Of a stretch of 64,000 nucleotides of DNA, positions 31,788-56,173 are shown piece by piece. The DNA lies in the NCBI GenBank assembly GCA_036785375.1, contig JAWMAR010000079.1:124001-188000 (forward strand), read 5' to 3'. Each line of letters opens with the position of its first letter. The first letter of the stretch is position 1. This DNA is from Leucoraja ocellata (Eukaryota). The notes under the pieces are model-generated. The model searched no databases. It had not been told where the DNA came from and was given only the letters and a program-made list of their open reading frames with translations. Both the position numbers and the translations under genes were made by a program.

Positions 31788-33360
31788 ATCATTGTAGGAA
31801 AAAGGTAAATCTAACAGTATAATTTTTTTCCAAACATTGTACCTTTCTATTCCGCATGGAGAGTTAATCATTCTACTACAGGCACTTGCTGCAGCTTGAA
31901 CATAATCCCCTCAAGATTTTCTCCAGTACTACCTAGCAACCAGGATAATGTATGTGGCTAGAAGAGCAAAACATTAAAGATGATGCAAATCTAAAATAAA
32001 ATCAAAAATGCTGGAGATACTCAGCGGGCAGCATATTGTAGAAAATAAACAAAATTAACTGTTCAGGTCATCCTACTGTTAGAACGCAGTTTACTAAATT
32101 GCCACAATTACTGAATATGATTTCATAAAGATGAATAACTGGTACACAAATAGATAATTTTAAATGTATTATAGAGTTGCACAGCATGCAAAGAGGCCCT
32201 ATGGCCCAACCCATCCATGCGGACTAGGGTGCCCCATCTAAGCTTGTTCTAGTTGCCTGTGTTTGGCCCATATCTCTCTAAACCTCTTATTCATTTACCT
32301 GTCCAAATGTCTTGATATCGTATGTGTCTTAACTACTTAATTAGGTCGCTTATACCATATATGTTGCACCCTCTATGTGGAAAGGGTTGCTCCTCGGGTT
32401 CCTATTATATCTTTAACCAATGCCCTCTAGTTTGAGATTATGAGTGACAAAACTTAATATGAACTCCTGAACCTGACTGAGCTTTTAATTTTGTGTAGTA
32501 GAATTAAAAATACCGTAGAATTGGTTTTGGTGCCCATTTTACAAGTTTAGAATAATAGCTTTAAGATTCCATCTTTCAGTGGAAATTTTATTTGGACAAA
32601 CCCCTTGACAACTGTTATGTTTTGTCAGCAATACTTTACAAAAGATCAATTAATAATATTTGTTTACAGAGATAATATACCATTGAGTATATGTTATATG
32701 GACAGGGGAATTGTGTGTCAATGGTTAGTGATTCACGTGTAAAAATCATGTTCAATTTACCTTTTGACTCATTTTTTTAACTATATTTTAATCTAGACCA
32801 AGTTGTTATGGTCTTCATTATGGCATACTGAAGAACTGGCTGATTTATTCAACGTGGCACTTTTCATTAGCACACAGTAATATTGTTTTCACTATACTTT
32901 ATTGAACATTGCATCTTGCAACTTTTAACGTTGGTTGCCAAAGTCAAAATTGTTCTTCTGCTGGAACTGGTACTGAATCTTTAAGAAGAGACATAGGTTG
33001 TAGTATTTATTATCTTTTATCTGTACTGAATCATTGTTAATATGGGTTTGCATAGCACACAGTGCCCAGTAGGGAAGGAACAATTGGAAGAAAAATCCAG
33101 TTATCCTGTTGTTACCTCAGTCATGGAATATTAATTGCAGGTTTGGATGATGGTTTTGTTTCAAAAACAGTTTTACTATCCCAAGATTTACTATCTCATT
33201 CACTGACAATAAAACAAGTAGTATCTTTGGACTTGATACTAATGAAGTATCAAATCATTTTTTGTTAACTTTTTTCTATTTCAACAAACTTGCTGGAGAA
33301 GTAGAAGTTGGTTAGCCATCCATGTTTGTTCTTGTATACCGCAACAACAATCTTCGTTTC

Positions 33361-33473
33361 TCATTTTCTCCGAAGTAGGAACATCAGTAAAATAGCACTC
33401 AGGAGTATACATAGAGTGCACACGGTTGGAACTACAATCTCAGTCACCATCTCCATATGATTGATGAGAGGAT
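33361..33473 (-). CDS. LCTL: Lactase-like protein (gamma-Klotho/KLPH), exon 13: transmembrane helix and stop
   Basis: (D)PLINHMEMVTEIVVPTVCTLCILLSAILLMFLLRRK*; ctttttag-type acceptor; 113 bp. Confidence 0.95.
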
Positions 33474-35148
33474 CTAAAAGTCAAAACAAAAAGACATAAT
33501 GCAAATAATCCTTTAATTATTTGAGAAATAATTTGTTTGCACTATATCAAGTGAATTTATTTAATATGTGATAAAATTATTTTATCATGTGCCCATTCTT
33601 TTTTTAAATAAAAACTGTGTTACATCTTTTGCTGAGAATATTGACAGCAGTGTTATGCTCTTCTACTTTTTATGGCAAGATCTCATAACTGAAGCATTAA
33701 ATTCCTTTGAAGCACAAGCTACAGATAGAGATACAACCTTGATAGGTTTACAGATTAGAAGTTTGAGCTAAGACATTGATCATTTTCCAGTAGTAATGTC
33801 ATAGGAATATAGAAATTATATCTTGAAACCACTCAAAAGTATCTTTGATTATTTTCCTTTTAATGTATTTGGATTGTGCGTGTAAATTTCAGCAGAACAT
33901 GAGAGATACTGAGCTAATAACCTATTTGAATTAAAGCATCCTAAGCATGTTCCTTGCCATTTCTAATTCTCTGACTTGGGTCCATGTAACCAAATATCTT
34001 TGAGTCAATCATTTAAAGAGGTCAGCTACTCTCACATGTCTTCATTGCCTATTTTCTGTTTTTTTTTCCTTGTCTAATCCTTGTTCCCCTTTTCAAGACC
34101 CGTACATGCTTTCTCAATTGCTCCCCACTGAGCTTGTTTATATCTTGCTGCCATGGGCGCCTGGACCCAGTTCATAGCCACCATCTGTTCTTTCTTTTAA
34201 AAAAAGCAACTCCCAGATTACGGCTCTGTTGCTTCATCAAGAACAACAAACCCAAGTCTTTCTATCATGGACATTTTAATCTTCTAATGGCACCCTCCTT
34301 GTCAGTCTTGTGGGTTTACTTTTCTCCTCTCCTGCATCTCCAACCAGGGTCTATACAACCTCATGTAATTCTCTGCCCATCATATTTATTCATTTTGTAT
34401 GTGTTTATTGAAGTTTTTAGGGCTTGGAAGTAAATCTGGTCGGCTTCACTGTTTATACAATATATAGCCCTTTCTGAAAACTTTATTCTAGCTGTATTTT
34501 TGGCACCTGTAGATTTGCTTTTCCGACTCTACCCAGCAAGTTTTTCATCTTTTTTCACTTTGCAGGTGGTGCTTTTGTGGTACTGAGTCTGGTGTTGTCT
34601 GTATGGAGTTTACATGTACATCCCAAAGACATACCAGTAGGTTAATTGGCTCCTTTAAATTTCTCTTGTGTAGATTTAAGAGAAACAGAGGGAATTAGGG
34701 GGAGGGGAAGGGCGGATGATAATGGACCTGTGAGAGAAAATATGAAGCAGGGAAATAAGTTTTTTGGGGAAGAATGGGTTTGCTTTGAGATGTGGCACAG
34801 ATAAAATGTGCCAACTGGCTCCTGCTGTTATAATCCAGCAACCCAAGAATTTGAAAGTTGTCTGATATTGTGATTTTATAAACCAAACTCAACTAGCAGA
34901 AAACAAATCATTTTAGTTTAAAACAATATAATATTTTAAATGGGAAAGCATTAAAATCAAAATGCCCAACTTTTCAAAATAATTACTCAATGTGATTATT
35001 TTAGAGAAATTGTAAATACGAAAGGACAAAGTAATCTCAACCTATTTTAGCCATGATTTGTATCCTAAAAGGCTAATGTGCACATCTTTCTTTGTTGCTT
35101 TCAAGACTTGATCTTGGCACTAAAAAAATGACATCAAGCCCTTTATAC

Positions 35149-35222
35149 CTAAACTTCATCATGCACTGGCCAAACTGTTGGCAAATGTGCCTGCTTCTCA
35201 TTTGTTCCGTCTGTTCTTCCAG
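35149..35222 (-). CDS. LCTL: Candidate LCTL alternative exon encoding a soluble C-terminus ending HDEV*
   Basis: Minus strand: gctaat branch-point motifs, pyrimidine tract ttcttttctgtttgcgcttttcag, phase-1 frame (A)GRTDGTNEKQAHLPTVWPVHDEV-TAG, immediately followed by a gtataa donor. Confidence 0.6.
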
Positions 35223-36832
35223 CTGAAAAGCGCAAACAGAAAAGAACCCATTAGCCCATTAGCGGACCTCCTATACCTTCCTGCAATTTTAAATATAGTA
35301 ATGTCAGTGTCACTTTAAAAGTACTATAGAAAATGGTGCATAGGTCAACCGAGTGTTTGTGGAAATTAGTAAATGTATGGAGAATATAACCTTGAGTGGT
35401 GCAACATGTTCTGTGGTGTGTGTGTTTAATAGTGTTAGGATTAGTAGAATTTATTTTTCAAAATATTAATTATTGATGTATGTATTGTCATGTTTATTTC
35501 AAGTAAAGTGTAATGGAATCAGAAGAATGCAGTTGTAAAACATAAGCCAGTATATTATTAATGGAATCATTGGAATTTCAAAACATGAGTTTTTTTTAAC
35601 AAAAATGCTTTTATGTAGGGGGAAAATTTATTTTGAACCCCAGAAATCTTTATCTTAAAATTAACGTTCTTAAAGGCAGGTAGAGGTTGCTGCCTATTGT
35701 GATGTGTGCATTAGATTTTAATGTTCCCTTTAAGGAGAAAAAAAAAACAATGGCCTTGCCTGTCCTAATGTGAACTGATTATAAAGTAACTGAAAACCAA
35801 AATGAAAAAGGCTACAGACAGCTGGGAAGTGAGTAACTTAAATAGTTCCATTTCTAATTGGTTGATGATGTCCGTTGTAACAAATTTCATTTATTCTCTG
35901 AATTTTTAATGAAATGGGATATGTTCCTTTTGTGAATGGGGTATCTTCATTTTGCAAATAGAGGAATGGTCTGATGTAGCTGCAAATTAAATCTTTCCAT
36001 CTAGATAGTGGCATTGTTTCAATATTATAGTTTGGTTTATGCTTTATTTGGAATTTGGAGTCAAAGCAATAGTTAATTCACTGCTGATAATTTGTAGAGA
36101 ACTATGAAACATTTTGTTGACTGGAATAGAGAAAGTGGTGACAATTTCTTAATACAGTCAATTTGTGAAGGTACGGAAACGTCTACTTGACCAAGGTAGC
36201 CATTTTGCTCATTCACAGTTACCCAACTTTTCTGTTGCCTAGTACAAACCTTATTTTTGATCATTCAAGTCAGCTGATGTAGTCATTCATAACCTGTGAG
36301 TAAATCAAGCTTTGCCATGCTTCTGTTTCCCTGTCCACGTAATCTATATTTCAGGGTTATTCTGCAGATAATAACTTTTGCGTTACCTTTGCAATATTTT
36401 ATAATTGGGAGGGTTTGCACTGAATTAATTGCTGTGTTTTCCCCCCCATTCTAACAAAAAATCTCAGACCTGAATCATTTACTATTTCTCTTCACATAGA
36501 TGATGCTTGACTGTGTGTGTATTTCCAAGTATTTTCAGCTTTTAACTTGTAAAATTGTCCTTTAGTTTAGCTTAATGTGACCTTTTATGGGATGGTTAGA
36601 AAACACCGTATGTGATGCTGTGGATGGGATTGTACTGGAGAGAGTGCAGAGGAGATTCACCACAATGTTGCCCGATTATAGGATTCTAGCTATGGGGAGA
36701 GATTGGATAGGCTGGGCCCATTTTCCCTGGAGCACAGGAGGCTGTGGGTCAACTCGAAATAAATATATAAAAATAGAAGAAGCGTAGCAGGGTAGGTAGT
36801 GCAAAACTGTTTTTCCTATGGTAGGTGTATCA

Positions 36833-37316
36833 TAGAAACATAGAAATAAGGTGCAGGAGTAGGCCATACGGCCCATTGAGCCAGCACTGCCATTCATTGT
36901 GATCATCCAAAATCGGTACCCCGTACCTGCTTTCTCCCCATATACCTTGATTCCATTAGCCCAAAGCGCTATATCAAACTCTCTTGAAAACATTCAGTGA
37001 ATTGGCCCCCATTGCCTTCTGTGGCAGAGAATTCTGCAGATTGACAACTCTCTGGCTGAAAGTTCTTCCTCATCTCAGTCCTAAATGGCCTACCCTTTAT
37101 TCTTAAACAACGACCCCTGGTTCTGGACATCCCCAACATCAGGAACATTTTTGCTGCATCTGGCATGTCCAATCCCTTAAGAATTGTATTTGTTTCTATA
37201 ACATTCCCTCTCATCCTTCTAAATTCCAGTGAATACAAGCCCAGTCGATCCATTCTTTCATCATATGTTAGTCCTGCCATCCCGGGAATTAACCTGATGA
37301 ACCTACGCTGCACTTC
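36833..37316 (-). mobile_element. CR1 3' end nested in an older opposite-strand CR1 fragment (~36600-37560)
   Basis: ORF 36969-37313 is a CR1 RT C-terminus; (catagaaa)n tail; TSD gtatca at 36827-36832 and 37317-37322; host fragment reads LERVQRRFTTMLP on the + strand. Confidence 0.88.
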
Positions 37317-37955
37317 GTATCAAAAACAAGGGCATAGGTTTCAGTTAAGAGGTAAGAGATTTAAAGAGGACCGTAGTGGAAAGTTTTTTTATTCCACAGA
37401 GTGATTGATATATGGAACGCCCTGCCAGAGGAGGGCGGTGTAATCAGATACATTCACTTTAAGAGGCATTTAGACAGACAGTTAAAAGGCATGGCATGGA
37501 AGGTGTGGCCCTAATGCTGGAGATGTGGTCAGATGACCCCATTTCTGTGCTGTTTGACTCATACTCTGGCTAATGCATATTCCAAGGTATTTACAGCAGG
37601 CAATAATAGTGAGCTGCCACTGTCTGATGCTAATCAAATAGAATGGATGGGCATTGTTACTGAATAACACTCCTTCCCATATTTTGATAAACACACACAA
37701 CTGTTCTTTGTCGAACGGGGAGTGGGAGGGTGATTACTTGAGTTATATAAATAATTACATCACTTCTTTGTGTTCTGCAAAGAAGCAGAGGGACCTTTGT
37801 GTCCCATAAGGTGAAATATCATCAGCTAGGCAGCCCAGAAAAAAGACAATGGTATAATTACTACATTTGTGCTCTGGCTAGAGCAGACATTGATGGGCTT
37901 TGTTGCCTTGCTCCTAAATGTGCTTCTAAACACCTTTGTGACGATGTTCACCTAC

Positions 37956-38019
37956 CTGCAGCAAGCAGTGCATTGGTGGTTGAGCACGTCTCAGCGGCCT
38001 TACGCAGCCAGTTTTCAAT
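37956..38019 (-). CDS. LCTL: LCTL exon 12
   Basis: IENWLRKAAETCSTTNALLAA; ggtag/gtaggt; 64 bp. Confidence 0.93.
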
Positions 38020-38497
38020 CTACCCAAAGAAAAGTGGAAAGTTTGTTTAATCACCATCATTTGGATAAAAACCAACATTCTGCTGCCGTGGGGAGGAAAA
38101 ACAATGTTATGGTAAACAAAACATGGGAGGTGGCCAGTGCGGGAGGTCGGGAGGGAGAGTGGGGGTGTGGGATAGGGGGGGGGGGGAGGTGAGGAGTGGG
38201 GTACGGAGGGGAGAGAAGTTATGGAGGGAGGGAGTGAAGGTAGGGGAAAGGAGAGGGAGGGAGAGGTGAGGGATGAGGGGGAATGGAGGAGGATAGGTGT
38301 AGAAAGAGGGATGGGAGGTGAAGTTGGGGGAGGGTTGCCATGACTCGCGTCACAACGGGGATCCCTGGCGTCACAATGGGAACGGGTGAGTGGTGGAATA
38401 TTGCGTTGGTGGAACGGGGCTCGACCGGTCTCACTTGGCCGAGTAATCACGGAAAGTGAGTATTATTGTTGTTAATTAAATAAACTGTGGTACTCAC

Positions 38498-38697
38498 TTC
38501 TCTCTGGTTGGGAAATCCATTGGAGCTGATCATCTTCCTGTAATATTGAACTGAAGCCTTGGGATACCTTCTCTTGTGTTTGGTTTTAAAATCAATGTAG
38601 TAAAGGCCAAATCTTTCTGAATACCCTTCATCCCATTCAAAATTATCCAGCAGTGACCAGGATGTGTAACCCTTCACTTGAGCACCATCTTTCACAG
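38498..38697 (-). CDS. LCTL: LCTL exon 11
   Basis: (A)VKDGAQVKGYTSWSLLDNFEWDEGYSERFGLYYIDF...GFPNQRE; glycoside hydrolase family 1 C-terminal motif; 200 bp. Confidence 0.97.
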
Positions 38698-39918
38698 CTG
38701 CAATGTTTCAAAACCACATGTGATTATAAACACAACGATTTGATATAGCATCAGGAAATGCTGGAAACTCATCATGATCTCATGAGCATTTGCATGAAGA
38801 AAAATTCAGATAATACATACATAGCAATGTTTCAGTCAGAAAAAAAGGTTTAGGTCCCAACCACTGTGAATTTTGTTTGCTTTGGTTGGATGATACTAAA
38901 ATAACTACAAATCATGTTTTTCCCAAAAAGGCTATCAGGATTGATTGTTCTCAATTGCAGCATCTAAAAATATAAGCAGATGTTTATTTATTGATAAGAG
39001 ATAAAGTAGCCATTTCTCCTATCTTTGTATCATCTCTCTCTGCCTATCGTAATCAAATCAGTTCTCTCCCCTGCTTTCTCTCCCTGACTGTCTTCTCCAT
39101 CTTCACTTTTATGTTCCTTTTTCTCTCGCTGCCTTCCGTCATGCTCACCCTCGTTCTCTTTCTCTGTCTCATCGTTTTTTACTCTAGCTGCTGCATGGTG
39201 GATTTTGTTTGATTTTGTTGAACGATGTAGAGCAAACATTGCTACCACCTGCCTCTCCACTGTCATGGCAAATTGGCCGTAAGAATAGAGCTTTAGTGGT
39301 CTGGGTCTGTATTGTCACGCAAGAATGAGAGGTGATCTCATTGAAGTTTTGATAAAATACCTGTCAGCCTTGACAGCTGTATGCAGGTTAGTTCCACTTG
39401 CTGAGGAGTTTTAATAGATTCTGGATACAAAGGGAGTTGAGGGATAAGGAGATAGTGCAGGAAAACTATGCGGAGGGAGATCAGCTAAGATTATGAAAGG
39501 TTGAATGGACTACCACTCCTAATTCTTATGTTCCTCAACTTATTTAGAATCTGTATAATTTAAACAATTTTTTGCAACTAAATTTTCATAACAACATCCA
39601 AATATGCAAGATATATGGAGGCACTAGTACCAAAATGTGAGATGATTTCTGTAATTAACACACTTTGAGGCTGCAGGAATATGCAATCGCCATGCGAACA
39701 GTACCCGAGATCAGGATTGGACCCAGGCTACTGAAGGTGTGATGTACTAATTGCTGCAACAACGTCCCTACTAACCTTCAGCAGACTAGAAAATTTCATT
39801 TAAAAACAAATTCACGTCTTCTAATTTTTGTTCACTCCCATGGGGGAATAACAATCGCAATTAATTCATATTAATGTATTATCATGGAAAATGCCTTATT
39901 TAGATAATGAAGACCTAC

Positions 39919-40045
39919 CTTTAAGAATCTCATTAACATAATTATTCATGTACTGTATTCGCCACTTATCACACAACTCAGTACACTGCCATTTCTCCGA
40001 CACTCCATTTTCTGTCACATAGATCCTAGGGTTACCATATCGACT
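39919..40045 (-). CDS. LCTL: LCTL exon 10
   Basis: SRYGNPRIYVTENGVSEKWQCTELCDKWRIQYMNNYVNEILK; GH1 nucleophile motif VTENG; 127 bp. Confidence 0.96.
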
Positions 40046-42878
40046 CTGAAACAAATCAGAAAACAAAAGTGTTGCAAATCAAATATTTCATTCCCAAATT
40101 TCAAATTTATTGTTAGTCGAACTCATCCAGACTGACTTTTTATTTTATTTTAAAGTCAGGAAAGCCGAACATGTCTTGCATTGTTGACCAATTGTAAATA
40201 AGCCAATTCTGCTGGAGTGAACTATTACATTGTGTATTGTTTTAAATGCGTGTGGTGATTTTTTTTTTGTACAAAGAGCTAGAGATTTCTGAACAAATGA
40301 AGTTGCTGTGTGCAAATTCCCACAACTATGTATGGTATTTATGACTGGAAAGCAATTTGTTTGTTCAGCACCTTTGGATCGTAATTAGTGAGGAATCACA
40401 AAAAGTCGTTTTTCCAAATAATATACAATTTATGAGACCAACCTTTTTTTTTTTTTTTCCAGATGCACTTATCGCAGGAGCTTACACATGCCCTTCACCT
40501 CAAATCTGTGATAACACAATTAAATGTCTGAAATGTCTCCCTGGAATTTTCTGTTATTTTTGCTGTTTATGTATTTCATGTTGTTCTGCTTCTTTTATTA
40601 AAAACATATTTTCTAAACTTCTATGTGATTTAAAAATGATGCTGGGTATGGTGTTCATTTTCCAAAGCTTCAGTTAGAAGCCTGCTTCTGAGTCTGTGTT
40701 ATAGTCCCGGTACAAGTGTGGATAGATTGTCCACGGTTGTCACAGTGGCAGATGGATGAAGCTTCTTCAGCACCACGTCCCAATCTTGTGATCTTGACAA
40801 CCCAAAAGATCTTGGAACAAAAGTGGCAATGCTGGAAGAATTCAGCCAGTTAATAAGCATCTGTGAAGTGAGAAACCAGTTAATGTTTTGGTTATGAAGG
40901 GTCTTCAACCTGAAGTATTAACTGGTTACTCTTTCCATAGATGCAGCTTGATTGGTTGAGCTCAACACCATTTCTGTTTTAAAATCGAACACTTCCGTCT
41001 GGTGGATGGAATCTAACTTTCCCTCCATCTTGGACCTGTTGCTATTCTTTTATTATCTTTGAGAATGTTAAAATGAAGGAACTGCCGCCTACCTAAAGTA
41101 CTGAGGGACTACCTCCACCACTAGGACTAGAGTGGCACAGAGATAGCTGACCACCATCTTCCTGGGCAACGGGATGAGGTAAATTCTGGGTGAGGTGGTG
41201 AAACTTATTTTTTAAGAAGATTTTCAAAACTAATGGTGCATTTGTTCTCGTACTTCCATAATGCAGCATGAACCCAACTGTTATAATAAGGGAATAAAAT
41301 AGTTCAGGAATTGTGCTTTTTTGTTTGCCATTCATATATACAGCTCACTAATTCCTTATCCACCTCTTCCTATTCCACCTCTTTTCTCTAACCTTGCAAA
41401 TTATTCCTTACCATAAATATGCAGTACCGAAGACGATATGGACCTGCCTTGACCACATCTACAGATAATGCATTACAGATTCCAACCACGCTATGTACAA
41501 AAAAAAAATCATCTTGTGCCTTCTGTCTTATTTTATGTCCATAACCTCTATTTCCCGGGGCCCTTCAACAGTGATACATCCTCCCACTATCAACTCTGTC
41601 CTGACCCTTCATCATTTTATATACTTTAATCTTTTCAGCTGGAAAGGGACAGTTGCAATTTCTCCAATCTTTCCTTGAATTCATAGAGCCTCACTCCTTG
41701 AAATATTCTCATCGATCTTTTCATGGTTCTTTTTAATGTCTTCACACCTTTCCTCCCAGGATAGGAATCTGAGATGGAGCTTGTTATATTCTTTCATTGT
41801 TAGATTTGTTTTATCTTTGTGCCTGGTGGAGGGAAGTATTTACTGGTGTTGCACTTTGCAGGAAGTTTCCATCCTATCTGAGCTCCTAACATTTAATGAG
41901 CCTTTCTCTGAAGGTGGTCTAATGCACCATGGATCGACAACGCAAACTGGAGGTTGCGAAGCGTAGTTAGCAAACTGGTGCCAAGGAACAGATCAGAGTT
42001 AATAACGTCTTTGGTGAGTGCTCACACTGGCTTAGCAGGGCAGCAGTATTAATTCAGAGTAAAGTTATACAGTGCTGAACAAATAATGGCCTACTGAATG
42101 TAGGTGTAAGGATATGAGTGTTTATAAAGAAAGGACACATTTATGTAGCATATTTAATAACTCAAATACAGCTAATTAAATGTTTTCTGCCATGATGCAG
42201 AAAACAGTCCATTTGTGTGTTCTATGATCCCACTACCAGCAATCTGAGGAGGAGTTAAATTGGCTGAGAGATAAATATAGACCTGAAAACTGAGAGAACA
42301 CTATTTTTGAAGTATTGCAATGGGGTTTCTTGTTTCTTCCTGGAGATGGGCTCTTGTGTCTCAACCAAATACCAGATCTGTTCTGATGTCACACCGCCTC
42401 AGAACCACACTGGTCGATTATGTTTTCAGGTTTTTGATGTTACACTTGGCCCACATAGAACACTACCTAGTGGGTGAAGGTTGAATACTTGTGGCTTGAG
42501 GTTAACACTGCAAAACATTTTCGGACTTGTCTTTGGATCAGTCGACTGATTGCACATTCAACTCCCACTATAGCGTTTGAAGACCATTCAAGTAGAGTAG
42601 TGAGATGAGACATTAAACCAAGATGCCATCTGATTCTCTTGGGCAGAAGGTGTTCTCTCTGAGTCCTGGCCAAATGTTAACCCCCAGTAAACGAGTAGAT
42701 GGTGTAGTTATCATCAGATTGCTTTCTGTGCACAAACTGATGGCGGGTTTGAGAAAGGAGGACTTTGGCCTATAGTATGTTTACAAGTCATGGGATCATT
42801 AAATAAATAAACGTAAATCATTTGTCATTACTTCAAAATGAGAAATTGAATTACGCGTCACCGATTTGTAGTAAATAC

Positions 42879-43153
42879 CTTAATAAAATTCAGGATCCTT
42901 CTGAAACCCCAGGGTACTGAGTAAAGCCATTCAGATCCTGGGTCTGGCCACTGTGGGTCGACGAGTTCCACTAAATCACGATCAGTGTGATAATTTGGTC
43001 CCTTGCTGTAATGGTAATTCTTGTGAGTGATGTAACGGGTCGTGAAGTGACCCAGTCCAAAAAAGTCTGCCGTGCCTTTGATGAAGTGTTTCTCCTGTGG
43101 AGTGAAGGCAGGCAGTCTTGAGTTGCCCAGGCCTTGCTGTGAACTTTTTCTCC
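42879..43153 (-). CDS. LCTL: LCTL exon 9
   Basis: (G)RKSSQQGLGNSRLPAF...FGLGHFTTRYI...WLYSVPWGFRRILNFIK; 275 bp. Confidence 0.97.
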
Positions 43154-44068
43154 CTGTTGATTGAGTAAACACCATGGTTATTTAGAATTAGTTCAAAGAT
43201 TAGATATTCTGAACACTACCATTGGCTCCAATGCTAAATTTGCCCAAGTCTTGAACTGGCCCCATTTTGTCCTGGATTTTATCTGTCATGTCATTGAATT
43301 GCGTTGTCTTCATAAAAAATAGTTTTACTTTGCTCGGATTCAATAAAGATCTTTCACATTTTATTAAATGGAAAGAGTAGGAATGAATGCAATATAGGTT
43401 GTTGGAAATAATTCTGACCAGCAGAGTAGATAGTGGACAAGAAGAAAAACTGTTCTGTTGGCACCCTGTTGAATATATAACATGAAAATAATTTATACAT
43501 GCATTTCTGATGCCATATAGGACAATGTATCTTTCCCAGGCAATGCGTCTGTGAATCCCTTCTATTTACCACTTTTGGATTTTTTCGCTTCCTGTTTAAA
43601 ATTCTTTAACTGATGCTGTCCCAGGTGCTCTGACATCATGAGTTGCCATCCACTGTTCATACATGTCGTTATGATATAATGAATCTCTGCCTTTGCCTGC
43701 CTAATATAAATCCAGGCTTAAATTGGATGGCATTTACATCCATACTGCGGTACTTCTGGGGTCACATTTTCCCACCTGGCCTACTGAAAGCAGCAGTGAA
43801 GAAGGGAAATTAAAGAACTGCAAAATTGGTGCCATTTTAAATTATATTAAGAAAACAAAATACATTCTGTAACATTTGCCTGGTTGCATTTTAGACCGCT
43901 AAATAATCCATTGGAAAATCAGGATTATATGTGTCTAAACAGATTCATTTGCTCTCTGTTTTTAGTTTTTGTTGTGTCAGGTTAAGTTGCTATATAGGCT
44001 TTGTGTGTGTATGCATCTGTGTGTGGAGTGTGCACTCACTTTATTCCATCCTATTATTTTATACTTAC

Positions 44069-44230
44069 CAATACAGTCTTTCATAACTTGAGGGTAGTCG
44101 CCATTGAAAATAGGGTTGGCAAACCAGCCAAGATTAAATTGGATGTATCGCTCAGCAGCCTCAATATCCTTCTGGCTTGTAATGTCAACTGGATCTCCCC
44201 ACTCACTTGTGATGGAAATACCCACCATGC
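44069..44230 (-). CDS. LCTL: LCTL exon 8
   Basis: (G)MVGISITSEWGDPVDI...LGWFANPIFNGDYPQVMKDCI; 162 bp. Confidence 0.96.
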
Positions 44231-45348
44231 CTTTAATATTAAAATAATGTTTAATAGATACCACATGAATAGTCTTTTAAATTAGAATATATATGTTTCA
44301 GTTGTGATTTTTGTAAATCAAAATGGTTCCTGAGTTGAAGATCATCCACTATATTTGTTCTCTTTCTCCACTGGTCAAGATCTCTTGGCTTTGATATTTG
44401 CTATGTTTTGGACTAAACCATGTACTATGTAGTCTCCTGGTCTGTCAACTTCTTGATTCACAGTATGCTCTTCAAGAATATGACACAGGTCACCGTTGAG
44501 GAAAAGATAGTAGATGTCTGAATTGATTTTGGTAAGCCATTTGATAAAGTCCCCCGTGTTAGGCCTCCAGATGTTTTAGGCTCAGTGATCCTGGCATTCA
44601 TTCAGCTTTGTTGCCATCCTTCAACCACAAGAGCCCTATGTTCTTAAAGACCTTCCCTGACTCTCTTTGTCTTTTATCTCATCTTTTGGACACTGCTTAA
44701 AACTGACTGAATTTAGCTATTTTGAACATGAAACATTATAATGTGGTAATGTGCATTAAAAGACATAGCTTAGTTCTATTCACAACATTTCTCCATAATC
44801 TAGCAAATAGTTTAATTATCTGTAATTTCTCCATGTGTATGGTATTATTCTGCTTTTGCAACATTTCCAGGCAGTGTATAAATAACATGCATAAAATATC
44901 ATACTATTATTTCTTAAGTACTTTTGCCAATTACCTTAAATCTGTGCTCTCTGGTTTCTGTTTCTCGTCCATGGGACGGTTGTTTTTTTTATTTACTCTA
45001 TCAAACCCTTTCATCAATATGAACCTCTTTAAAACCTCTCAACCACCAATTTAAAGGAGGTTAATCCCAATTTTGCATAACTCCACAGAACTGCTCAGTC
45101 ATTAATACTCACTGAAATATAACAAAATGTGCTGAATTTAGGCCTTTCTAATGACTAATGAGATTATTTGAATGGAGCTTGTCTCATAAATTCTACTTGA
45201 AACAGATGATACATCATCCTATCACATCTATATAGCAGAAAGTAGTCAAATCATGCAGTATACTTTACGCTAGACGTTCCAGTTCACTCCTGTGCTACTT
45301 ATTTGTTATATGTTTGAGACTGGTTCCTTATTTTTGAGAGCTCGATAC

Positions 45349-45403
45349 CTTTTTGGCGACTGCGCCAGAGTCTATCGTACGTGTGCCAAGTTGTCGCGTG
45401 GGC
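45349..45403 (-). CDS. LCTL: LCTL exon 7
   Basis: AHATTWHTYDRLWRSRQK; cacag/gtatcg; 55 bp. Confidence 0.93.
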
Positions 45404-45949
45404 CTGTGAAAGAGAAGTCAACACCAAGAGTGTTACTGAAATCATGGCTTCTACACATTTTCCTCCCCCACCTTATTTAAAATTTTCAGCTGTCTCGCCC
45501 ACCAAAAGGACCAGAAAAAGAACCTTCCACCAAAACCGGACATCAGAATGTGGTGAGTAAGGCTTCTCCCATTGGTGACCCTCGACCTTGGTCATGGATT
45601 GAAGCCACATTGTGGGAACCCGCTTGACTGATGCCTTGGTGCAATACTGAGGCAGTGCTCCACTGCCAGACGTCCTGTCCTGTACGGTATATGGCAGATA
45701 CTATGAGGCTGAGCATGCATGTGCTGCTCATGTCCTGGTATCAACCACTGACAAAACTGATTAATTCCTCATGTCTAATGCATTTTGTTTTATGCAAATT
45801 GATTGGAGAATGCTACATGAGGACCTCGTCAGATCAGGAAAGATGCTGTCTGCAAGCAAGTAGAGCAAAACTGATGATCCACTATCTGTTTTCTCAGAAA
45901 TCCTCATAGATTGGAATCCAGCTCACTTGGTTCTGTTGACTGTGCTCCT

Positions 45950-46128
45950 ATTTAACTCACTGGCCCCAATCCTACATTCCCACTGAACTCACCAGGGCCC
46001 CATTGTCCCATTCCCTTTAATCTCATGAAGACGCTGTTCCCATACTGCCTTTAATCTCATGAGGACCCCATTCTTATACTTCTTTTAAACTCACCAGAGC
46101 TGCATTCCCACATCCCTCTAAACACCTG
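45950..46128. repeat. Degenerate ~33-bp minisatellite (about 5 units)
   Basis: Recurring unit of the form tttaa(a/t)ctca....g.cccattcccatac.cc. Confidence 0.55.
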
Positions 46129-46295
46129 ATTCACTGGAAAGTTTATTATAAAGTGAATTAAAAGTTAGTTGGTATTTCAAAAGGAATAATAACATCTGCC
46201 AGTCTGGCACCACCAAAGTACCAAGTGTGCTAGATTATCAGAATTTAGTGTTCTTTTATTTCATTGTTAAACAATTTTTTGATATAGAAACTTAC

Positions 46296-46391
46296 CCTAA
46301 TAATGTTATGTGCTGCCCTGTAACCTCCTATTCCATTAAGCTTTAACCCTGGGGCATGCAGTCCAACCTCGTATCCTTCGACAGCTATGGA
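46296..46391 (-). CDS. LCTL: LCTL exon 6
   Basis: SIAVEGYEVGLHAPGLKLNGIGGYRAAHNIIR; tgcag/gtaagt; 96 bp. Confidence 0.96.
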
Positions 46392-46679
46392 CTGCAATAT
46401 ATAATACATAAGCATCAATGATGGTAGTCTAAACATATCCCACTTATTCCACTGTGATCTAAAGCTCCTGAATTGTACTTAAATTTCCCACGATGGAGCT
46501 GCAACCATGTAGGCCAGCACCAGGTCTTTTCCCAAACAGGATCTATCCATCTTCCTTGCTTGCAGTCATTCGAAATGAGTGGCAAAGAAATAAGCATTTG
46601 TACCAGTTATTAGCCTGGCGAGGGATATTTGTCAGGTTTAAAAGAAAAGTGTTGACAGCAGGATATCTGCAAAAAAATG

Positions 46680-47107
46680 ATTGTGTCTGAGCTATAGGGA
46701 GAGGTTGAGTAGGCTGGGATTCTATTCGTTGGGGAGCAGGAAGTTGAGGAGTGATCTGATAGAGGTATATAATCATGAGAGGAATAGATTGGGTAGATGC
46801 ACAGTCTCTTACCCAGAATAGGCGAATCAAGGACCGGAAGACATAGGTTTAAGGTGAAGGGGAAGAGATTTAATCGGAAGCTGAGGGGCAACTTTCACAT
46901 AAAGGGTGGTGGGTATATGGAACAAGCTGCCAGAGGAGGGAGTTGAGGCAGGGACTATCCCAACGTTTAAGAAGCAGTTAGGTACATGGATGGGACAGAT
47001 TTGGAGCGATATGGACCAAACATGGGCAGGTGGGACTAGTGTAGCTGGGACAGGTTGGGCAAGTTGGGCCGAAGGGCTTGTTTCCACGTTGTATCACTCT
47101 ATGACTC
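46680..47107 (+). mobile_element. CR1 3' end, second subfamily
   Basis: RT C-terminus (..VGIWNKLPEEGVEAGTIPTFKKQL) plus 3' UTR and ctctatgactct tail. Confidence 0.85.
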
Positions 47108-48252
47108 TGTTTGGTTATAGAATTCTCATGTGAGATTGAGAGGGAGATCAATAATGGTGGAGCTTGATTGGTGGGACGAATGGGTTAAACAAGAAATTGC
47201 CCAGGATAATCCTTCATATATTTGCCATCCAACACATGGGATCAATTGGTAATTAACCAATTACAGGCCACTGCCTGCGACAAGGACATTGCAATACAGA
47301 TCATAAACAGTTTGTTGAATTGATGAGAATTTTGCTTAATTCATTCTCAAAAAAATAATATTTGAGAGCTAATTAATTTTAGATCCTATGATTCAATTTT
47401 TATATTTTTAATTTTAATCTTACTTATGCTTTTAATTAATAAATGAAACAGAATGGAAACACGGTGGAGAATAGTGTAAGACGGGCTTCAGCTGAATAAT
47501 ATAGAAAAGTAAAGTTGGAAAAAAATGGTCTCAAGTCATCATAATTAATATTTATTTTGAAACCATTTTCAATAATTTTAGTTGTTACTTTCAAATAGAA
47601 TTCTGAACACATGGCAGCGCTCAGCATTTTGAATATGAAAGGTAGTTGCCATGTTTCCAAAATAAAGTATGTCACTGCACCTCAGCTGGGTGAAAAGGTA
47701 CGATGTAAAAGCAAGTCTTCTCACTGTTCCTTCTGCGAACAGTGTGGCCATTTTTGCAATGGGCTATCATGCTACCAAAGCATAGAGAACCAAATCGTTA
47801 ACATTAGATTGAAACTGGATACAATAAGAATGGAGAAAAATGTTTAATCATACAAGTGTGAGCTTTTTTTAAATGGGGAGAGTTCAGAGCCAATGTGCTT
47901 ATAAACAAACTGAGAGCATATATACAATTGTGCAATGTGGAAGAATTACATTGTTACAAATAAAATAACTCTAATCGTGTACATAGAACAGTACAGTTTG
48001 GCCCACAGTGTCAATGTTGTACATGATGATAAATTATACTAATCTGTTCTGCCTGTATATGTGATCCATATCCTTCCATTTGTGTATAGCCACATACTTA
48101 TAGAAACGGCTTTACTTGCACAGCTTTTTAAGGAATGCTGGAGTCGAAATGTATCAGTGCTGAATAATTGGTGACTGATACCTCTCATCTCCAGCGTTGC
48201 GTTCCACAAGTTAATGTTCAATTAATCAAACTTATTATGACATAAAACGTAC

Positions 48253-48381
48253 CCAAGGATTGTTGAAAGTAATCCAATGTTTCACTCGGTCACCAAACTT
48301 CTCAAAACACAGATTGGCATAATCATTGAAGAAGTTAATCATACTACTGTTCTGCCAGCCACCATATTTATTTTGGAGGAC
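48253..48381 (-). CDS. LCTL: LCTL exon 5
   Basis: [43 protein letters not shown]; tttag/gtacgt; 129 bp. Confidence 0.96.
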
Positions 48382-50879
48382 CTAAAAAGAATAGAGATAA
48401 ATACGAAATGAGAATCAAATGCCATTTAATGCATTATAACTTCTCTTTCTAACACGCTGTAGTGCATACCAATTTCTAGTGGGCTAACATGACCTTAGAC
48501 GAACAAAAAAAACAAGCCAGTCATCAGACGTAAAGAGATCAATTGGCGAAGGTATCTGCATGAAGAGCATGGCTAACTACAGTAAATCTTCATTTTAACG
48601 GACCTCCTTAAAACGGATTTTGGTTATAGCAGTGGACCCATCGACGGTTTCTAACATCACCACCGGCTTCATCGTCTCCAAGGCTGGGCTGCTTTCAGGT
48701 GCGCTGCCGACGCCACCAACAGCCACTTCCAGGTCGGCCCACACAGTTTCCCTTGCCACTTCCAGGCTGGGCTGCCGACACCATCTTCCTGGCTGCTTTT
48801 AGGCCGAGATGCCAACACCACCCCTGGCCCACACCGCCCTGCCCGGCAGCTTCCAGGCCAGACCTACTGCTGCCTCTGCCAGCCCACACAGCTCTCTAGG
48901 CCTCTTTCAGGTCGTGCCTGCTGCCGCCTACCCTTACCTGCACTCCAGCCGCCTGCAGGCCGGTACCAACGACTCCACCAATCTTCGCCTCTCCTTGGGC
49001 CAGCAGGTCCAGGCCATCAACTCACCTGGAACTGAGAGTCTGAAAAAGGGTCTCGACCCAAAACGTCACCTATCCATGTTCTCCAGAGATGCTGTCTGAC
49101 CTGCTGAGTTACTCCAGCACTTGCAGTTGTTTGTTTCTGTCCAATATAATGATGGTTTATGGTACTTACATTAACAGGGCCAGGTGGCTGTACAGTAAAG
49201 GGAATCCACAGAAATTGGAAAAAATATTTTAATAACCCAGTATGCCCTAAGAGAACCATAAATGTGCAGGCTGTGAAAATAGATGGAGAGAGACGCCTTT
49301 GTTAAGATTAACACAGCTCTTTTCTGAACTCCTTTCCCAAGACAATGAAATTCTTGACAGTAATAAAAAGGACTCCAAGAAGGCTGGTTTCATTGCCAAC
49401 TTCTTTGTAAATATGAAATAGTCAAAGGTATCGAGTCAAAATAAATATTATTAGAGCATTTCAACAGAGTTCATATCCGAACAGAGTGATTATAATCTCA
49501 ATTCCTCTGTCTCGTGGGACCGTTTGTTCAAGTTACATATCAGTTCCAATAAACACCTGACGTAAAGGCAGTGCATTCAAAAGGAGAGAGCAGGTGGCGG
49601 GAATAGATTACATTTTGTATTTTTCAATCTTAAAATTAATTGTGACTATATGTTAAAGCTGAGTGTAGCCACAAGAATGTAATTCAAAATTTGGCATTGA
49701 TGCAGTTTTAAATCAGGCAGCAAAGTTAGTCTGGTCTGAAATCCTGTTTGTTTACACTAAGGATGAGTTTGATGTGAAATTTAGTGTAATGTTAAAGGAG
49801 AAGTAACAATTAAATCAGTTAATAACGGGCAGGGTTTTACCTTAAAAGACATTGCAGCCAGGGAAGGGTGACCTGATCAGTCATCAAACGTTATAGATCA
49901 TTAGATTATCTGCATGTTGACCCCAAATTGACCATGAGGACATGCTCCACTGATAGCACATAAGGATAGGGACGGATTTCATTATATCAGCTGTTACATT
50001 GTTGCCACTGTCAACCTCAGAGATGTTAAATCCTATATCACCACAGAACTAGGAATCCTGATCTATTGTCATTATTAAATCTCTTAATAACACTTCTGCA
50101 CAACCAAAGTAATCAAACCCCACTCAGATAGGTGGAGACGCTAGTCCGACAGTAATCCAGGAACCTGTGTGTAACACAGCTGTACTAGAGCTAGAACGTC
50201 TTGTCCCTGGTCGTTCAGTCTGTGGTGGGAAGGGTAGTAGCAGAGTTGTTAAAGTTGGTCACAAGTACCCAAATCTGAAAAGGTAAAATAAAGCCAGACT
50301 TTTCACATACAGGGGGAAATGCAGAAATTCAGATTTGCAAATTCAGATATATGGAGAGGCGCATATATGCATTCTGATGTAAATGGACAAATGTATGTTC
50401 ACAATCATATTGAATTTTTAAATGATTATTGAGATGGTCGTTTCCCCACTTTCCATTCCCTCCACCCCACCCTTGCAGATGTCCCTGCTGAGAAAGATTG
50501 TAATCATTTTGGGTTGCAATGACAGAATTCAGTAGATTAAGACAGGATTGTAGCATCACAGTATTCAGAGTGACACGACCACTTTCTCTAAAAGTATGGT
50601 CCTTAGGATGAACACAACAGTGCCCTCCTGCACAGGTTAGAATTAACCATGTGGGTGAAGCCTATGATCTTTTATTTGTATTTATCTGTGGGATGTGGCT
50701 ATTGTGTATAATTGTTGCCTTTTTGTGACTGACATTCAGCTGAAGAGTCAGTGCTCATTTATTTGTTTGTTCTCACACTATAGACAAGGTTGGGTTTATT
50801 GTCTCCTTGAAACTCTGCAGTCCCTTGACTGAAACTGTACCAGTATATCCTAAATCACATTCAAACATTTGGTACATAC

Positions 50880-50989
50880 CTGTGGAAGATCCCAGTGGTA
50901 CAGGGTCACTATGGGCAGAATTTGGCTCTCCTGGAGGGTGTTTATCAGTTCATTATAATAGTCGATTCCTTTGCCATTCACTTGCTCGG
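50880..50989 (-). CDS. LCTL: LCTL exon 4
   Basis: (A)[36 protein letters not shown]; 110 bp. Confidence 0.96.
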
Positions 50990-51145
50990 CTGGAGAATTT
51001 TGAAAGATAAGAAATAGATTATCTATAATGTACAAATTATTTGTAAATACAATCTTTGTTATACTCTACTGTAACTTTCCTAGAGTGAGGACCTCCTCCC
51101 ACAGTTATATCAAGACTCTTATGTAGTGTGATAATACTGCTAGGC

Positions 51146-51376
51146 TACTGAGAATCTGTGGAATTCTCTGCCACAGAAGGTAGTTGAGGCCAGTTCATTG
51201 GCTATATTTAAGAGGGAGTTAGACGTGGCCCTTGTGGCTAAGGGGATCAGGGGGTATGGAGAGAAGGCAGGGATGGGATACTGAGTTGGATGATCAGCCA
51301 TGATCATATTGAATGGCGGTGCAGGCTCGAAGGGCCGAATGGCCTACTCCTGCACCTATTTTCTATGTTTCTATGT
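51146..51376 (+). mobile_element. CR1 3' end
   Basis: CR1 3' UTR (gaagggccgaatggcctactcctgcacctatt) with ttctatgt tail. Confidence 0.85.
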
Positions 51377-51764
51377 ACGTGGCAGTGCCGGAGATCAGAT
51401 TTGGGAGTTGATGTGATGGGGAGGAAAGGTTGGGAGATGTCATTGCTCAGCAGGGAATTTTTAATACTGAGCTGGTATCCGAGTATCAGCAAGTTTGGCA
51501 ATCATGGAGTTATACAGCTATTAACTGACCTCACCCAGGATGATAGATTTATCCTCATAACTCAAAGCACAGAAACAGGGAGAGGAAACAACGTTAGTAT
51601 AATCCTTAGTTACACTTCAGTGCCCATAAATTTGTACAAGGTTGGCCGAGAGTGGAAGGATGTCAGCCAAGGTTAAAGTGGTGGGCATAACAGGCATTTT
51701 TTCCTAATAATACAAAATAATTATAGGAATGGTGGTTTTCAGTTCTGTCCGCCCCATTGCAGGA

Positions 51765-52376
51765 AGGATGTGTAGTGGGCGGGGGAGTCGGGGGAAACTT
51801 TTTCAATCTCTTACCTTGCCGGAGATGCGATTGTTTTCTGGATCGTATCTCCGGTCGCTCTGCGACCTAACATCGTGGAGCTGGAGGCCTTGCTCAGGAC
51901 TGACTTTGAGCCCCTTGCCTGGGCTCGATGCTCCAACTGCGGCCTGCGGCCTTTAACATCAAGGAGCTTGCAGTCTCGGGTTGAGACCAACATCGGGAAG
52001 CTCCAAAAGCCGCAAGACGTTCGACTAGCCCCAACCCATGGTAGATCACCAGCTGAGATTCCCCCCTCCCCCCCCCCCCCGGATGCATGAGCTTGATCAC
52101 CCCGACGAGGAGGCCAGCCGCCGGCTACAGAAGAAAGATCATCCCGTCAACGGAAGGCCCCCGACCCGTGGAGGACAAAGAAGTGAGAGATTGAACTTTT
52201 TTATCCTTCCATCAGTGAGGAATGTGGAGGAGTCACTGTGGTGGATGTTCATGTTAAAATGTATTTTGAGTGTTCTGTTGCTTTTTATTGGTATGACTGT
52301 ATGTTGCATGTATGTTGCACTGTAATTCCTCGTATATGGTGCAAAACATACTTGGCTTATAAAGTATGATTATGAT
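51765..52376 (+). mobile_element. GC-rich non-autonomous retroelement
   Basis: Shares aacatcaaggagct and the ccttccatcagtga...tcactgtggtggatgtt core with other copies; (tatgat)n tail. Confidence 0.55.
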
Positions 52377-53005
52377 GCCATCCTGGTTCTTCAAGCCTGG
52401 TCTGTCACAGCTGTGGGGCAAATGCACAGCTTCTTTCCCTTCCCTTACAGGGTGACTGAGGCCAAGTGTTTACTGAGCAGAAAATGTTTAAAGGGGATTC
52501 CAAACTAAAAAGTGTGAAAATAGAGACGTCATATGTACTCATAGCTCAGGACTATGCCCTTTGGCCCATAAACTTTTTGCCGAACATGACACCAATGTAA
52601 ACCTCACATCTACCTACACATGGTCTATATCCCTCAGTTCCCTGTTCATGTCTCTCAATGCCTTTTAATCATTGCTATTATATCTGATTTCCAAAATCTA
52701 CACATCCTGCCTATAATGTGGCGACCAGAAATGCAAACCAAAACTTTGATTTATATTACAAAGTAAAAATACTTAATACCTGCTTAGTCCCAGAACGTGT
52801 ACCCAGCCTGACACCTTTCCACTCTCTGCCAATCATGTGCAAATCTGTGGATGCTGAAGTGCAGCAAAAGATTATGCTAAAATTCATTTTCTCCCTGTGA
52901 ACAAGGAGGGAATCTGCTCACTTCTGACAGCATTAACATTAGCTTACTAGCATTCAGAGAAGGCCGACTCCCTACCTAGCAAGACAGTAAAGTGAGACAT
53001 GTTAC

Positions 53006-53093
53006 CTTTTATCCCCGTTGGTATGATTCGAGGCCAGGATATAGAAAAGCGATAATGATTGACTTTTAACTCCTTCAACAAGGCAATGTCCTC
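53006..53093 (-). CDS. LCTL: LCTL exon 3
   Basis: EDIALLKELKVNHYRFSISWPRIIPTGIK; tacag/gtaaca; 88 bp. Confidence 0.96.
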
Positions 53094-53624
53094 CTGTAAT
53101 AAAATCAGGTGTTAACCAGGCTTTGCATGCATGAGGAAAATTATGAAGTTACTGGGTCTAGAAGGTTTGCTGGACAGGCTAGGAATTCTTTACCTGGAAT
53201 ATAGGAGCCTGAAGGATTATGTTATGGAGGTTTATAATATCACTAGACCAAGTGGGACACGTTGGGTCCTTGTCACACTGGAGGGCTGGTCCCCGATCGC
53301 AATATTCCACCACTCACCCATAGCCCCCAACTGTGCAGCCGCGGTTGTGACGCCAAAGGTTTGGGATAAGGGCCAGGTGCAGGCAGTTAGGTAATCCAAA
53401 CAATGTATTTTCACCAGAAATACTTGGCGATGGAGGATAGTTACATATAGAATTGCAAATCGAGTCACTTAGAAAAGTGGTCAATAGACCTGATTGACAG
53501 TGGGTGATCCAATCACACCCATTCTGTCAGGAATTTCACCATATTCCACCTTAAACATTTAATTGCCTGCAAAATACCTTGGGATGTGAAAAACTCTAAC
53601 ACAACCCATATTCTATGTTCTTAC

Positions 53625-53785
53625 CTTGAATTTATAATAGCTTTCACAGGATGAGTCCCCTGTTTCATTCAGGAATACTTTTCCTTTCTTATGCGTGAAA
53701 ACATCCCAGATACTGAGACCTTTCCCATCTTGATTCCAAGCTCCTTCTGTCTGGTAGGCCGAACTGCCCACACCCCAGGAGAAAC
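53625..53785 (-). CDS. LCTL: LCTL exon 2
   Basis: (G)[31 protein letters not shown]...SYYKFK; GH1 N-terminal signature; 161 bp. Confidence 0.97.
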
Positions 53786-54129
53786 CTAAAATCAGTAGAG
53801 TACTTAAACACTGGGTTTCACGACAATATATTTGTGCATTGATTGGTACTTGGAAATATTCCAAATTGTTTCAAACTAAGATTAATTAAAGTTCGGTATT
53901 TTTCACATTTCCATACAATGCAGGAGGCCATTCATCTGATTGAGCTTATGCTGGCTGTTAGTAAAATCCCATTATCCCACTTATTTCCCTTGTAATTATT
54001 ATTTCTCATACATTGCAGGACGTCTCTGTTCCGAGTCTATATGCCTGTGATGCTGCTGCAAGCAAGATTTTCATTGTACCTGGATCTCACCACACTTGTG
54101 CATGTGACAATAAACGTGACTCGCCTTGA

Positions 54130-54368
54130 GATCTACCCTAATTCACCAGCCACCCACCTACACTTGGGACAACCTAGTATGACCAATAAACCCAACAACT
54201 CTTATGAGTTTCGGACATGGGAGAAAACTCAAGAGTACCCAGAGAAAAGCCACGTTGTCACAGAGAGAACATGGAAATCGGAGCTAAGATCAGGATCAAA
54301 CCCAGGTCACTGGAGATGTGAAGCAGCAGAACTGCCTGCTAAACCACTGTGTTGCTCATATATGCTGC
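54130..54368 (-). mobile_element. Degenerate V-SINE (HE1-like)
   Basis: Reverse complement of the V-SINE head and core (ggagaaaactcaagagtacccagagaaaagccacgttgtcacagagagaacatg...caggatcaaacccaggtcactggagatgtgaagcagc). Confidence 0.6.
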
Positions 54369-56052
54369 AGCACAGAACGTTTAAAGATGGTACTGCATGA
54401 CTTTCGTCTCTAAATACAAACTGAAGTGATTTTAGAAAATTGGTGTGGAACTGATTGTGTCTGGTCCAGTACGAGATGAGAAACAGAACAACCATGCTGT
54501 CACATGATCTGTAGCTGCACAGGACTGTTCATTAATTCGTATAGTCTGCCATGAACATAGTAAAACATCCAAGGCGTGTCACAAAAGGAGATGGCAAAGA
54601 GAGAACCAAAAGTCAACCAACGAGTTGTGCTTTAAGGAGCATGAAAGGAGGAGAGGGAGGCAGAGAAGTTAGGGTTGGTGTCCAAGTAACTGACAGAGAG
54701 ATTAAAATCCACATTGACTGGAAGGCTGTGAGAGTTGAGGGAACACAGAGATCATAGAGAGTTGTAGCACTAGAGTTTACAGGGATGGATTTCCACTCAG
54801 GGTGAGCAGGGGCAAAATCTTGGAGGAATTTGAAAGCAAAGTTGGAATTTTTAATATCAAGACCTTTATTTAATTTGAAGCCTACATAACTCCCACAGCA
54901 CTGGAGGTGGAAGGAATGCAAATTAGACATATTTCTTAAAGAAAATAACATTTTGAGATTCTGCATGAATAATTTGAAAGGATGTACAGTGGAAAGCAGA
55001 TATCTTTGGACTTAATGTTTCCCAAGGGCTATGCTCACTCACACATAGGAGCACACAAGAACAAGAGAGGTTTCATAAAAAATCTTGGGAGGGTTAGACA
55101 GAAGGACATGTCCATTAGTTGTGAAATCCACAATTAGAAATCATGGATTCATGCTATAATGTCATCTATTTGGGAGAGAGCCGAGTAGAGATTTATTTTG
55201 AATTGTCTGCAGCACCATATATGTGGTGCTTCGTCATTTGCATGTTTGAGGCTTAGATTAGGTAGTTTCTGAGGTTGTAATGAATTAATGGATATTGGAA
55301 AGTTATTGTAAAGTTGAATTATTTTATGGAAGAGCGGAGAGGCCATTCGTTTCAGTTCCTAAAGCTACGTATCATGGGGGCTTTATTCATTTCTAGCCTG
55401 GATTTATTGTGGACTGATTAATAAATCGTCTGTGTACCAATTGATCATTGGGATAGTGGAAGATGAAGCAGATAGATCCTAGTCCTTGGTGCTGTAACAA
55501 TTCCAATATCCTAAAGTCTTTTCAGAATACTTGTTAGATTCAACCAATCAAGATTTTGAATATTTGTCTCTTTTCACCTGGATCTTGATTTGTAAACTTA
55601 GACGGTAAACGCACATACTGTTTCTTATGGGGACTGTCAATAATCTGTCACTACAGGGGCAACAGTCCTTCGTCATTGAAAACTCAATATGATGCATATA
55701 ATCCAGCTTCTGGTAACAAACATTGGCCTGCTCTAAACTGGTAAGAATTCTGAAGCTATTGGACACAGAGAACATATCAAAAGATCAGTTTATTCTTATA
55801 TTGCGTAAAGTTAAGAAACTGTCCACAAATCTGGTATAATGAGAAGATTCCAGAACTGAGAAGGACCAACATTATTTTTCTTGATTATTCTTAAACTTTT
55901 AGATCAGTGACCAGAAATGGACATTCTGTAACAATAGATTTGTTCTGACCATAAAAATCATGCCTTCATCATACAGCATCTTAAAAGTATTCACAGTAAA
56001 TTAATACATCACTCTAGTTCCTAGCTCTACTCGGGCCCTTCAATGTACTTAC

Positions 56053-56173
56053 CAGCAGGGAAAGTCCCATAATAGAAGGATCCGCCATGGTCTTTTGTCC
56101 AGTCAAAGTCCAGAGTCAGGCACAGAGGCAGCGCCAGCAGCAGCCCTCCGTGCAGAACCAGGGGCTGCATCAT
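56053..56173 (-). CDS. LCTL: LCTL first coding exon (signal peptide)
   Basis: MMQPLVLHGGLLLALPLCLTLDFDWTKDHGGSFYYGTFPA then gtaagt donor; hydrophobic leader plus SFYYGTFP; start is 56173 or 56170. Confidence 0.92.

Follow-up and report, generated by a model that had tools for sequence, protein, structure and literature searches.

The window, the whole 64,000-nucleotide stretch of Leucoraja ocellata DNA that was analysed, holds a 13-exon LCTL gene on the minus strand, placed from 56173 to 33361 by tblastn with skate and ray proteins; its exon residues align best to the Leucoraja erinacea X1 model (tblastn). ZWILCH, in a tail-to-tail arrangement with LCTL, is matched on the plus strand as far as about 28789, and between the two 3' ends are frames that we take to be of a Tc1/mariner-like transposase (about 29620-31030). 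What is presumably an exon of ribosomal protein L4 (about 1121-792, minus strand) stands head to head with ZWILCH. The LCTL region is present twice in the 3.44-Gb assembly, as haplotig-like copies with 3 differences per 3,221 bases, and the two copies show zero differences in the cassette exon with which this analysis is concerned. That exon lies inside LCTL intron 12, which is 4,482 nt long and also contains pieces of a repeat that we assume to be of the LINE type (about 36500-37400); these pieces are highly transcribed. The relevant features are the following.

33361..56173, minus strand: LCTL (gamma-Klotho, KLPH) coding span, with signal peptide, one GH1 domain, stalk and transmembrane exon (tblastn and Pfam)
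37956..38019, minus strand: LCTL exon 12, 64 nt, ending in phase 1, donor CAG/GTAGGT
35223..35263, minus strand: two GCTAAT branch-point motifs, pyrimidine tract and AG acceptor, similar in the percid copy
35149..35222, minus strand: cassette exon, 74 nt, encoding a 24-residue tail ending WPVHDEV, and a TAG stop
35149..35173, minus strand: 25-nt block identical in skate and percid, holding TGCATG, the HDEV codons and TAG
35143..35148, minus strand: cassette donor GTATAA, directly after the stop; GTACAA in percid
33624..33662, minus strand: probable decayed counterpart of a second cassette (in frame in other species), reading EEHNTAVNILSKR, without a pyrimidine tract
33361..33473, minus strand: coding part of LCTL exon 13, with the transmembrane anchor and a short cytosolic tail; 3' UTR upon cassette inclusion
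32844..33011, minus strand: three AATAAA motifs in the LCTL 3' UTR, at 33011, 32903 and 32849

Preceded by the last G of exon 12, the cassette translates as AGRTDGTNEKQAHLPTVWPVHDEV, with the TAG as its final three bases. All the elements that the initial annotation had read from the letters are present, namely two gctaat motifs (with their CTAA at 35262 and 35254), a pyrimidine tract, a cag acceptor, 74 nt in phase 1 and a TAG followed by gtataa, and so is the TGCATG that it had placed within the exon (35165-35160). Among the 61 acceptor/donor pairs that a loose filter left in intron 12, the cassette is the sole candidate in which the first stop falls on the last codon. Of the 9 positions of the U1 consensus, its donor matches 5, compared with 8 for the donor of exon 12 and 6 for that of exon 11, and this relative weakness fits the expectation for an optional exon. 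TGCATG is absent from the introns flanking the cassette in skate and percid. Within the exon it is not universal: Megalops and Antennarius have Lys or Ile at tail position -5, so the motif must be broken there.

Transcripts of a related skate contain both junctions that had been predicted for the cassette, 37956 to 35222 and 35149 to 33473, as well as the form that skips it. These observations come from two runs of one sample, recorded as 'RNA?' with the tissue unstated, searched with likeness set at 85, and the anchors of 27-28 nt at each joint are shorter than the tool's 31-letter guide. In the inclusion contig, 132 nt long, the cassette stands between 27 nt from exon 12 and 28 nt from exon 13; the joint at 33473/35149 has CT..AC ends (GT..AG on the gene strand), and the depth of the contig is 14.5 and 17.3 in the two runs. 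A second contig runs from exon 12 directly to exon 13, with a loose end at 33475, at depths of 33.3 and 39.9. The quotients 14.5/33.3 and 17.3/39.9 are no inclusion ratio, and the 3.6-kb skip contig may include the oppositely transcribed 3' end of ZWILCH. The skip form also appears in X1 database models. Five raw RNA runs with the same species label list no junction, and LCTL is barely covered in them: in four, coverage of 32750-38090 is dominated by the repeat at about 36500-37400, with LCTL exon depth near or under 1-4, and the fifth likewise has too little LCTL. Another run, outside these five, also has too little LCTL and yields unspliced pieces alone.

The same tail recurs widely. The comparison covers 386 LCTL records from homologue searches (the best 120 of 267, 2 of 2, and the best 120 of 223) and from three cluster listings with at most 15 members per cluster, and all counts are among the records listed. 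An HDEV end directly after exon 12 is found in 31 of 285 non-amniote records, which correspond to 30 genes in 29 species: skate, stingrays, devil ray, three sharks, chimaera, two bichirs, tarpon, cyprinids, percomorphs (in both lctla and lctlb), coelacanth, one salamander and four frogs. A search with the region of the coelacanth tail returned 2 proteins among 5 candidates. The initial annotation had staked its reading on conservation of the frame, the splice sites and the terminal tetrapeptide, and these are kept in related species, as protein models in the 29 species and as genomic DNA in a percid. The tail of the Amblyraja radiata X2 model (XP_032906538.1) is identical to that of the window. 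Throughout the 30 genes listed, W at -7 and the terminal H, D, E and V are invariant; the tail is 24, 21 or 19 residues long and in frame every time, and substitutions at -5, -6 and -9 to -16 are mostly conservative. As judged from these models, an invariant W and HDEV combined with in-frame length changes indicates selection on the peptide. The supposition that the cassette is a chance pseudo-exon in intron sequence, for which its short length and nothing else speaks, is refuted by the junctions and by this conservation, and we give it virtually no credence.

No HDEV end occurs among the 101 amniote records listed, 73 of which extend to exon 12. It is also missing from two lungfish records and from the listed ranid, bufonid, hylid and dendrobatid records, so absence from annotation is weak evidence, and a loss of the cassette in amniotes, as read from annotated records alone, is a lead only. 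Records labelled Lampetra planeri have a C-terminus nearly identical to that of percomorph lctlb and are probably contamination.

Intron 12 holds more than this one cassette. The motif EEQR[ST]..ANILRLIH marks a second cassette in bony fish, frogs and turtles, and it occurs in 84 of the 386 records listed (bichir, paddlefish, teleost lctlb, frogs, salamander and turtles). In the window, the likely decayed site at 33662-33624 on the minus strand scores 36. None of 60 shuffles attains this value, whereas 1 of 28 chunks of the window does, probably the site itself; in the related-skate contigs this site is unspliced. With this homologue of the second cassette, LCTL intron 12 has two ancient optional exons.

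What inclusion of the HDEV cassette does to the protein can be read from domain span and hydropathy. The Pfam GH1 domain spans residues 36-503 in both isoforms, and the alternative tail begins at 530. The initial annotation had the transmembrane segment lost on inclusion, and this is borne out: past residue 40, the hydropathy maximum is 0.51 in the inclusion form versus 2.63 in the membrane form, such that hydrophobic sequence in the inclusion form is confined to its N-terminus. By these measures it combines a signal peptide, the lack of an anchor and a free C-terminus, the setting of a KDEL signal. In active GH1 enzymes we assume that the acid/base Glu resides in TFNEP and the nucleophile Glu in [IV]TENG. 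The reference LCTL record reads TFNNP at 198-202 and VTENG at 409-413, and the window is identical; the acid/base position is therefore Asn201, with the nucleophile motif kept. AlphaFold models of 30 sequences have a mean pLDDT of 44.6, the tail being below 50, a low-confidence fold, and a solved LCTL structure is not among the 60 entries listed of 154 matches. The tail peptide is absent from the protein-level supplements of a zebrafish lens proteome, the examined rows of which hold no peptides.

NMD requires a stop that precedes the last junction by more than about 50-55 nt. Here the penultimate exon ends with the TAG codon itself, so that 0 nt separate the stop from the last known junction; adding the second cassette would raise this distance to 39-45 nt. 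Downstream, a contiguous contig of the related skate covers 33475-32751 with no intron seen, which leaves the first 610 nt of the 3' UTR unbroken. Since the stop lies on the last junction and the UTR is contiguous, escape from NMD is predicted. The stable mRNA proposed by the initial annotation is thus upheld as to the geometry; the stability of the transcript itself we infer. A perfectly conserved, stop-bearing exon end with a weak donor is reminiscent of regulated stop-containing exons, and it could be argued that the cassette is an RNA-level off-switch that lowers the membrane form, its truncated product being degraded or unimportant. However, a stop in this position does not suit such a role, the inclusion contig is found at substantial depth, and an off-switch has no need for in-frame length changes and conservative substitutions. 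We therefore regard an off-switch as very unlikely.

At the nucleotide level, a pattern search allowing every silent variant led to one metagenome contig, which is host DNA with the tail of the Perca lctla model. As in skate, the percid cassette has 74 nt, is in phase 1 and lies between AG and GT. Identity between skate and percid extends over the last 25 nt of the cassette and the following GTA, compared with longest identical runs of 11, 7 and 11 nt in exons 11, 12 and 13. Among the cassette codons that could vary silently, 10 of 10 are identical between skate and percid, versus 34 of 91 in exons 11-13; six of the ten lie in the 25-nt block, for which the chance is about 0.0013, the block having been picked after inspection of the data. 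The alignment score of the cassette branch-point and pyrimidine region is matched by 0.85% of 2000 shuffles (3.4% for the exon 13 acceptor). As to conserved RNA pairing, the block pairs with either flank no better than shuffles do, in skate or percid. GQCMMKFRY, the off-frame reading of the skate cassette, also appears in off-frame models of Takifugu and Etheostoma, which implies identical codons. The Ascaphus X1 model passes through HDEV into the second cassette in a different frame; for this, the donor would have to lie 4 nt upstream, with GTG as the codon of the last Val. Given the identity of the HDEV codons at silent sites, part of the HDEV conservation may be at the RNA level. On sequence comparison, the end of the cassette is under coding as well as splicing constraint, the two being inseparable in these data for the HDEV codons.

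Canonical LCTL is an ER protein, and it is conceivable that in fish and amphibians HDEV brings about efficient ER retrieval, making the soluble form an ER-luminal resident. HDEV is like the KDEL/HDEL signals in its free C-terminus on a signal-peptide protein and in its H at -4, D at -3 and E at -2; all 30 genes listed have H at -4, an acidic residue at -3 and Glu at -2, and the free C-terminus is invariant in all 30. Efficient retention would profit from H-D-E being the best residues at these positions; His rather than Lys at -4 confers an approximately 8-fold higher affinity according to the available part of one study (PMC8248988). Unlike these signals, it has Val at -1, in 30 of 30 genes listed, in place of Leu, Phe or Met (or, weakly, Ile), and is spliced in as the alternative to a membrane anchor. 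Val is not a working residue in the scan of all AKDEX variants (Raykhel et al., 2007), where, in the excerpt at hand, more than 20% ER localisation is reported for L, F, M and I only (PMC2140024); Val may thus give no retrieval. A 2025 review, in the section available, orders receptor ligands as KDEL > HDEL > DDEL > HDEV (PMC12328878), and the main text of the paper it cites for that order does not contain 'HDEV'. Binding values are 0.24 uM for HDEL, 1.94 for KDEL and 14.9 for DDEL, and DDEL cargo, which ranks above HDEV, is mostly secreted (PMC8248988, available part). These published retrieval data were obtained with mammalian and chicken receptors; the skate genome has KDEL-receptor matches at three places. 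Efficient retention thus appears quite improbable, and HDEV would at best act as a weak ligand. Of the two fates that the initial annotation left side by side, ER-luminal or partly secreted, partial secretion is the more likely one, and the ER-luminal fate suffers from HDEV being a poor signal in published data.

It is also possible that the ectodomain is freely secreted, that HDEV owes its preservation to splicing signals or to some partner distinct from the KDEL receptor (an extracellular protein that binds a C-terminal valine, for instance, or the GH1 domain itself), and that its likeness to HDEL is incidental. The 25 bases identical in skate and percid, and their agreement at 10 of 10 silent sites, point in this direction, as do the codons implied by the off-frame Takifugu and Etheostoma models and the poor showing of Val in the AKDEX scan (PMC2140024, excerpt at hand). 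Moreover, Val to Leu requires one base, yet this change is absent from the 30 genes listed, and W(-7) is not among the four residues by which the signal is defined. However, invariance is confined to W and the last four residues, the codons at -5 and -6, including TGCATG, vary (Megalops, Antennarius, Pleurodeles, coelacanth and frogs), and the Ascaphus model would imply GTG for the last Val. Free secretion therefore seems rather unlikely to us. The reading that we favour, with somewhat better than even confidence, is a stable soluble ectodomain that undergoes leaky retrieval by the KDEL receptor and is secreted in part. In such a scheme, the optional exon swaps the membrane anchor for the 24-residue tail ending in HDEV, and the mRNA would escape NMD and be translated. 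His-Asp-Glu would engage the KDEL receptor, with Val at the last place loosening the grip, such that the soluble form might linger in the ER and Golgi and escape once the receptors are saturated. The same bases would carry splicing signals that set the ratio of membrane to soluble form. Perhaps the soluble form, devoid of the acid/base glutamate (Asn201), acts as a binding protein, by analogy with the spliced, KL1-only alpha-Klotho.

The cassette is a real, ancient and expressed splice switch from a membrane to a soluble protein, a principle that is already known. Secreted alpha-Klotho is a product of alternative splicing, with 549 aa that comprise KL1 and 15 unique residues, whereas gamma-Klotho is described only as a membrane protein, in the available parts of two articles (PMC11854833, PMC8204227). 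The initial annotation had contrasted splicing in LCTL with shedding in alpha-Klotho; the switch in LCTL is indeed spliced, but the contrast does not hold fully, as alpha-Klotho also has a spliced soluble form according to these same parts. In both cases a single GH1-like domain is freed from the membrane by splicing and receives a short new tail. The alpha-Klotho splice drops KL2, whereas the LCTL cassette form retains the whole ectodomain and its exon precedes the last exon; unlike that of alpha-Klotho, the LCTL tail carries an HDEL-like word conserved from chimaera to frogs. In rodent Lctl (mouse AAH30631 and D3YTQ7) the transmembrane exon is also lost right after exon 12, but the anchor-less tail is unrelated, begins with Gly, lacks HDEV and likely results from read-through into intron 12, possibly an independent route to a soluble form.

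The HDEV isoform itself is already among the automatic models of RefSeq, Ensembl and GenBank as X2/X3-type predictions, and the X2 model of Amblyraja, Danio rerio lctla X6 (XP_073762540.1) and Polypterus X3 have the same exon and the same type of tail. The RefSeq and Ensembl models differ from the present account in being unnamed predictions, and the function and conservation of the tail are undescribed in the literature found. There is no account of this cassette in the literature covered on LCTL/KLPH/gamma-Klotho isoforms, a coverage outside of which lie Fan 2018 and the original description of KLPH, and the available portions of PMC13168428, PMC13458340 and PMC4823059 do not mention such an isoform. 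LCTL is required for lens suture formation in mouse (PMC13168428, available portion). It is appealing, albeit speculative and rather doubtful, to propose that jawed vertebrates keep the gamma-Klotho switch with the sub-optimal HDEV as a signal for tunable release, and that amniotes dropped the switch in connection with the remodelling of the lens on land. LCTL is viewed as a purely membrane-bound and poorly understood relative of Klotho, and a soluble form across non-amniote jawed vertebrates provides a handle on the role of its ectodomain. This form can be removed cleanly in zebrafish or frog via one small exon, and the invariant HDEV end offers a natural test of whether weak KDEL-receptor ligands serve for timed release.

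Two further observations concern the 3' end of the gene. In the related-skate runs, the intron downstream of the cassette (33602-35079) is covered at a depth of about 7 and the upstream part of the intron at 0-2.6, reflecting either retention of the downstream intron, which would leave the encoded protein unchanged, or ZWILCH transcription that reads through on the opposite strand; in one raw RNA run, reads over intron 12 are mostly of one orientation. Lastly, turtles, frogs, teleosts and sharks have recurrent models, 274-306 aa or 511-529 aa long, from which exons 11-12 or exon 12 are missing, which suggests that there may be further splice variation at the 3' end of LCTL.
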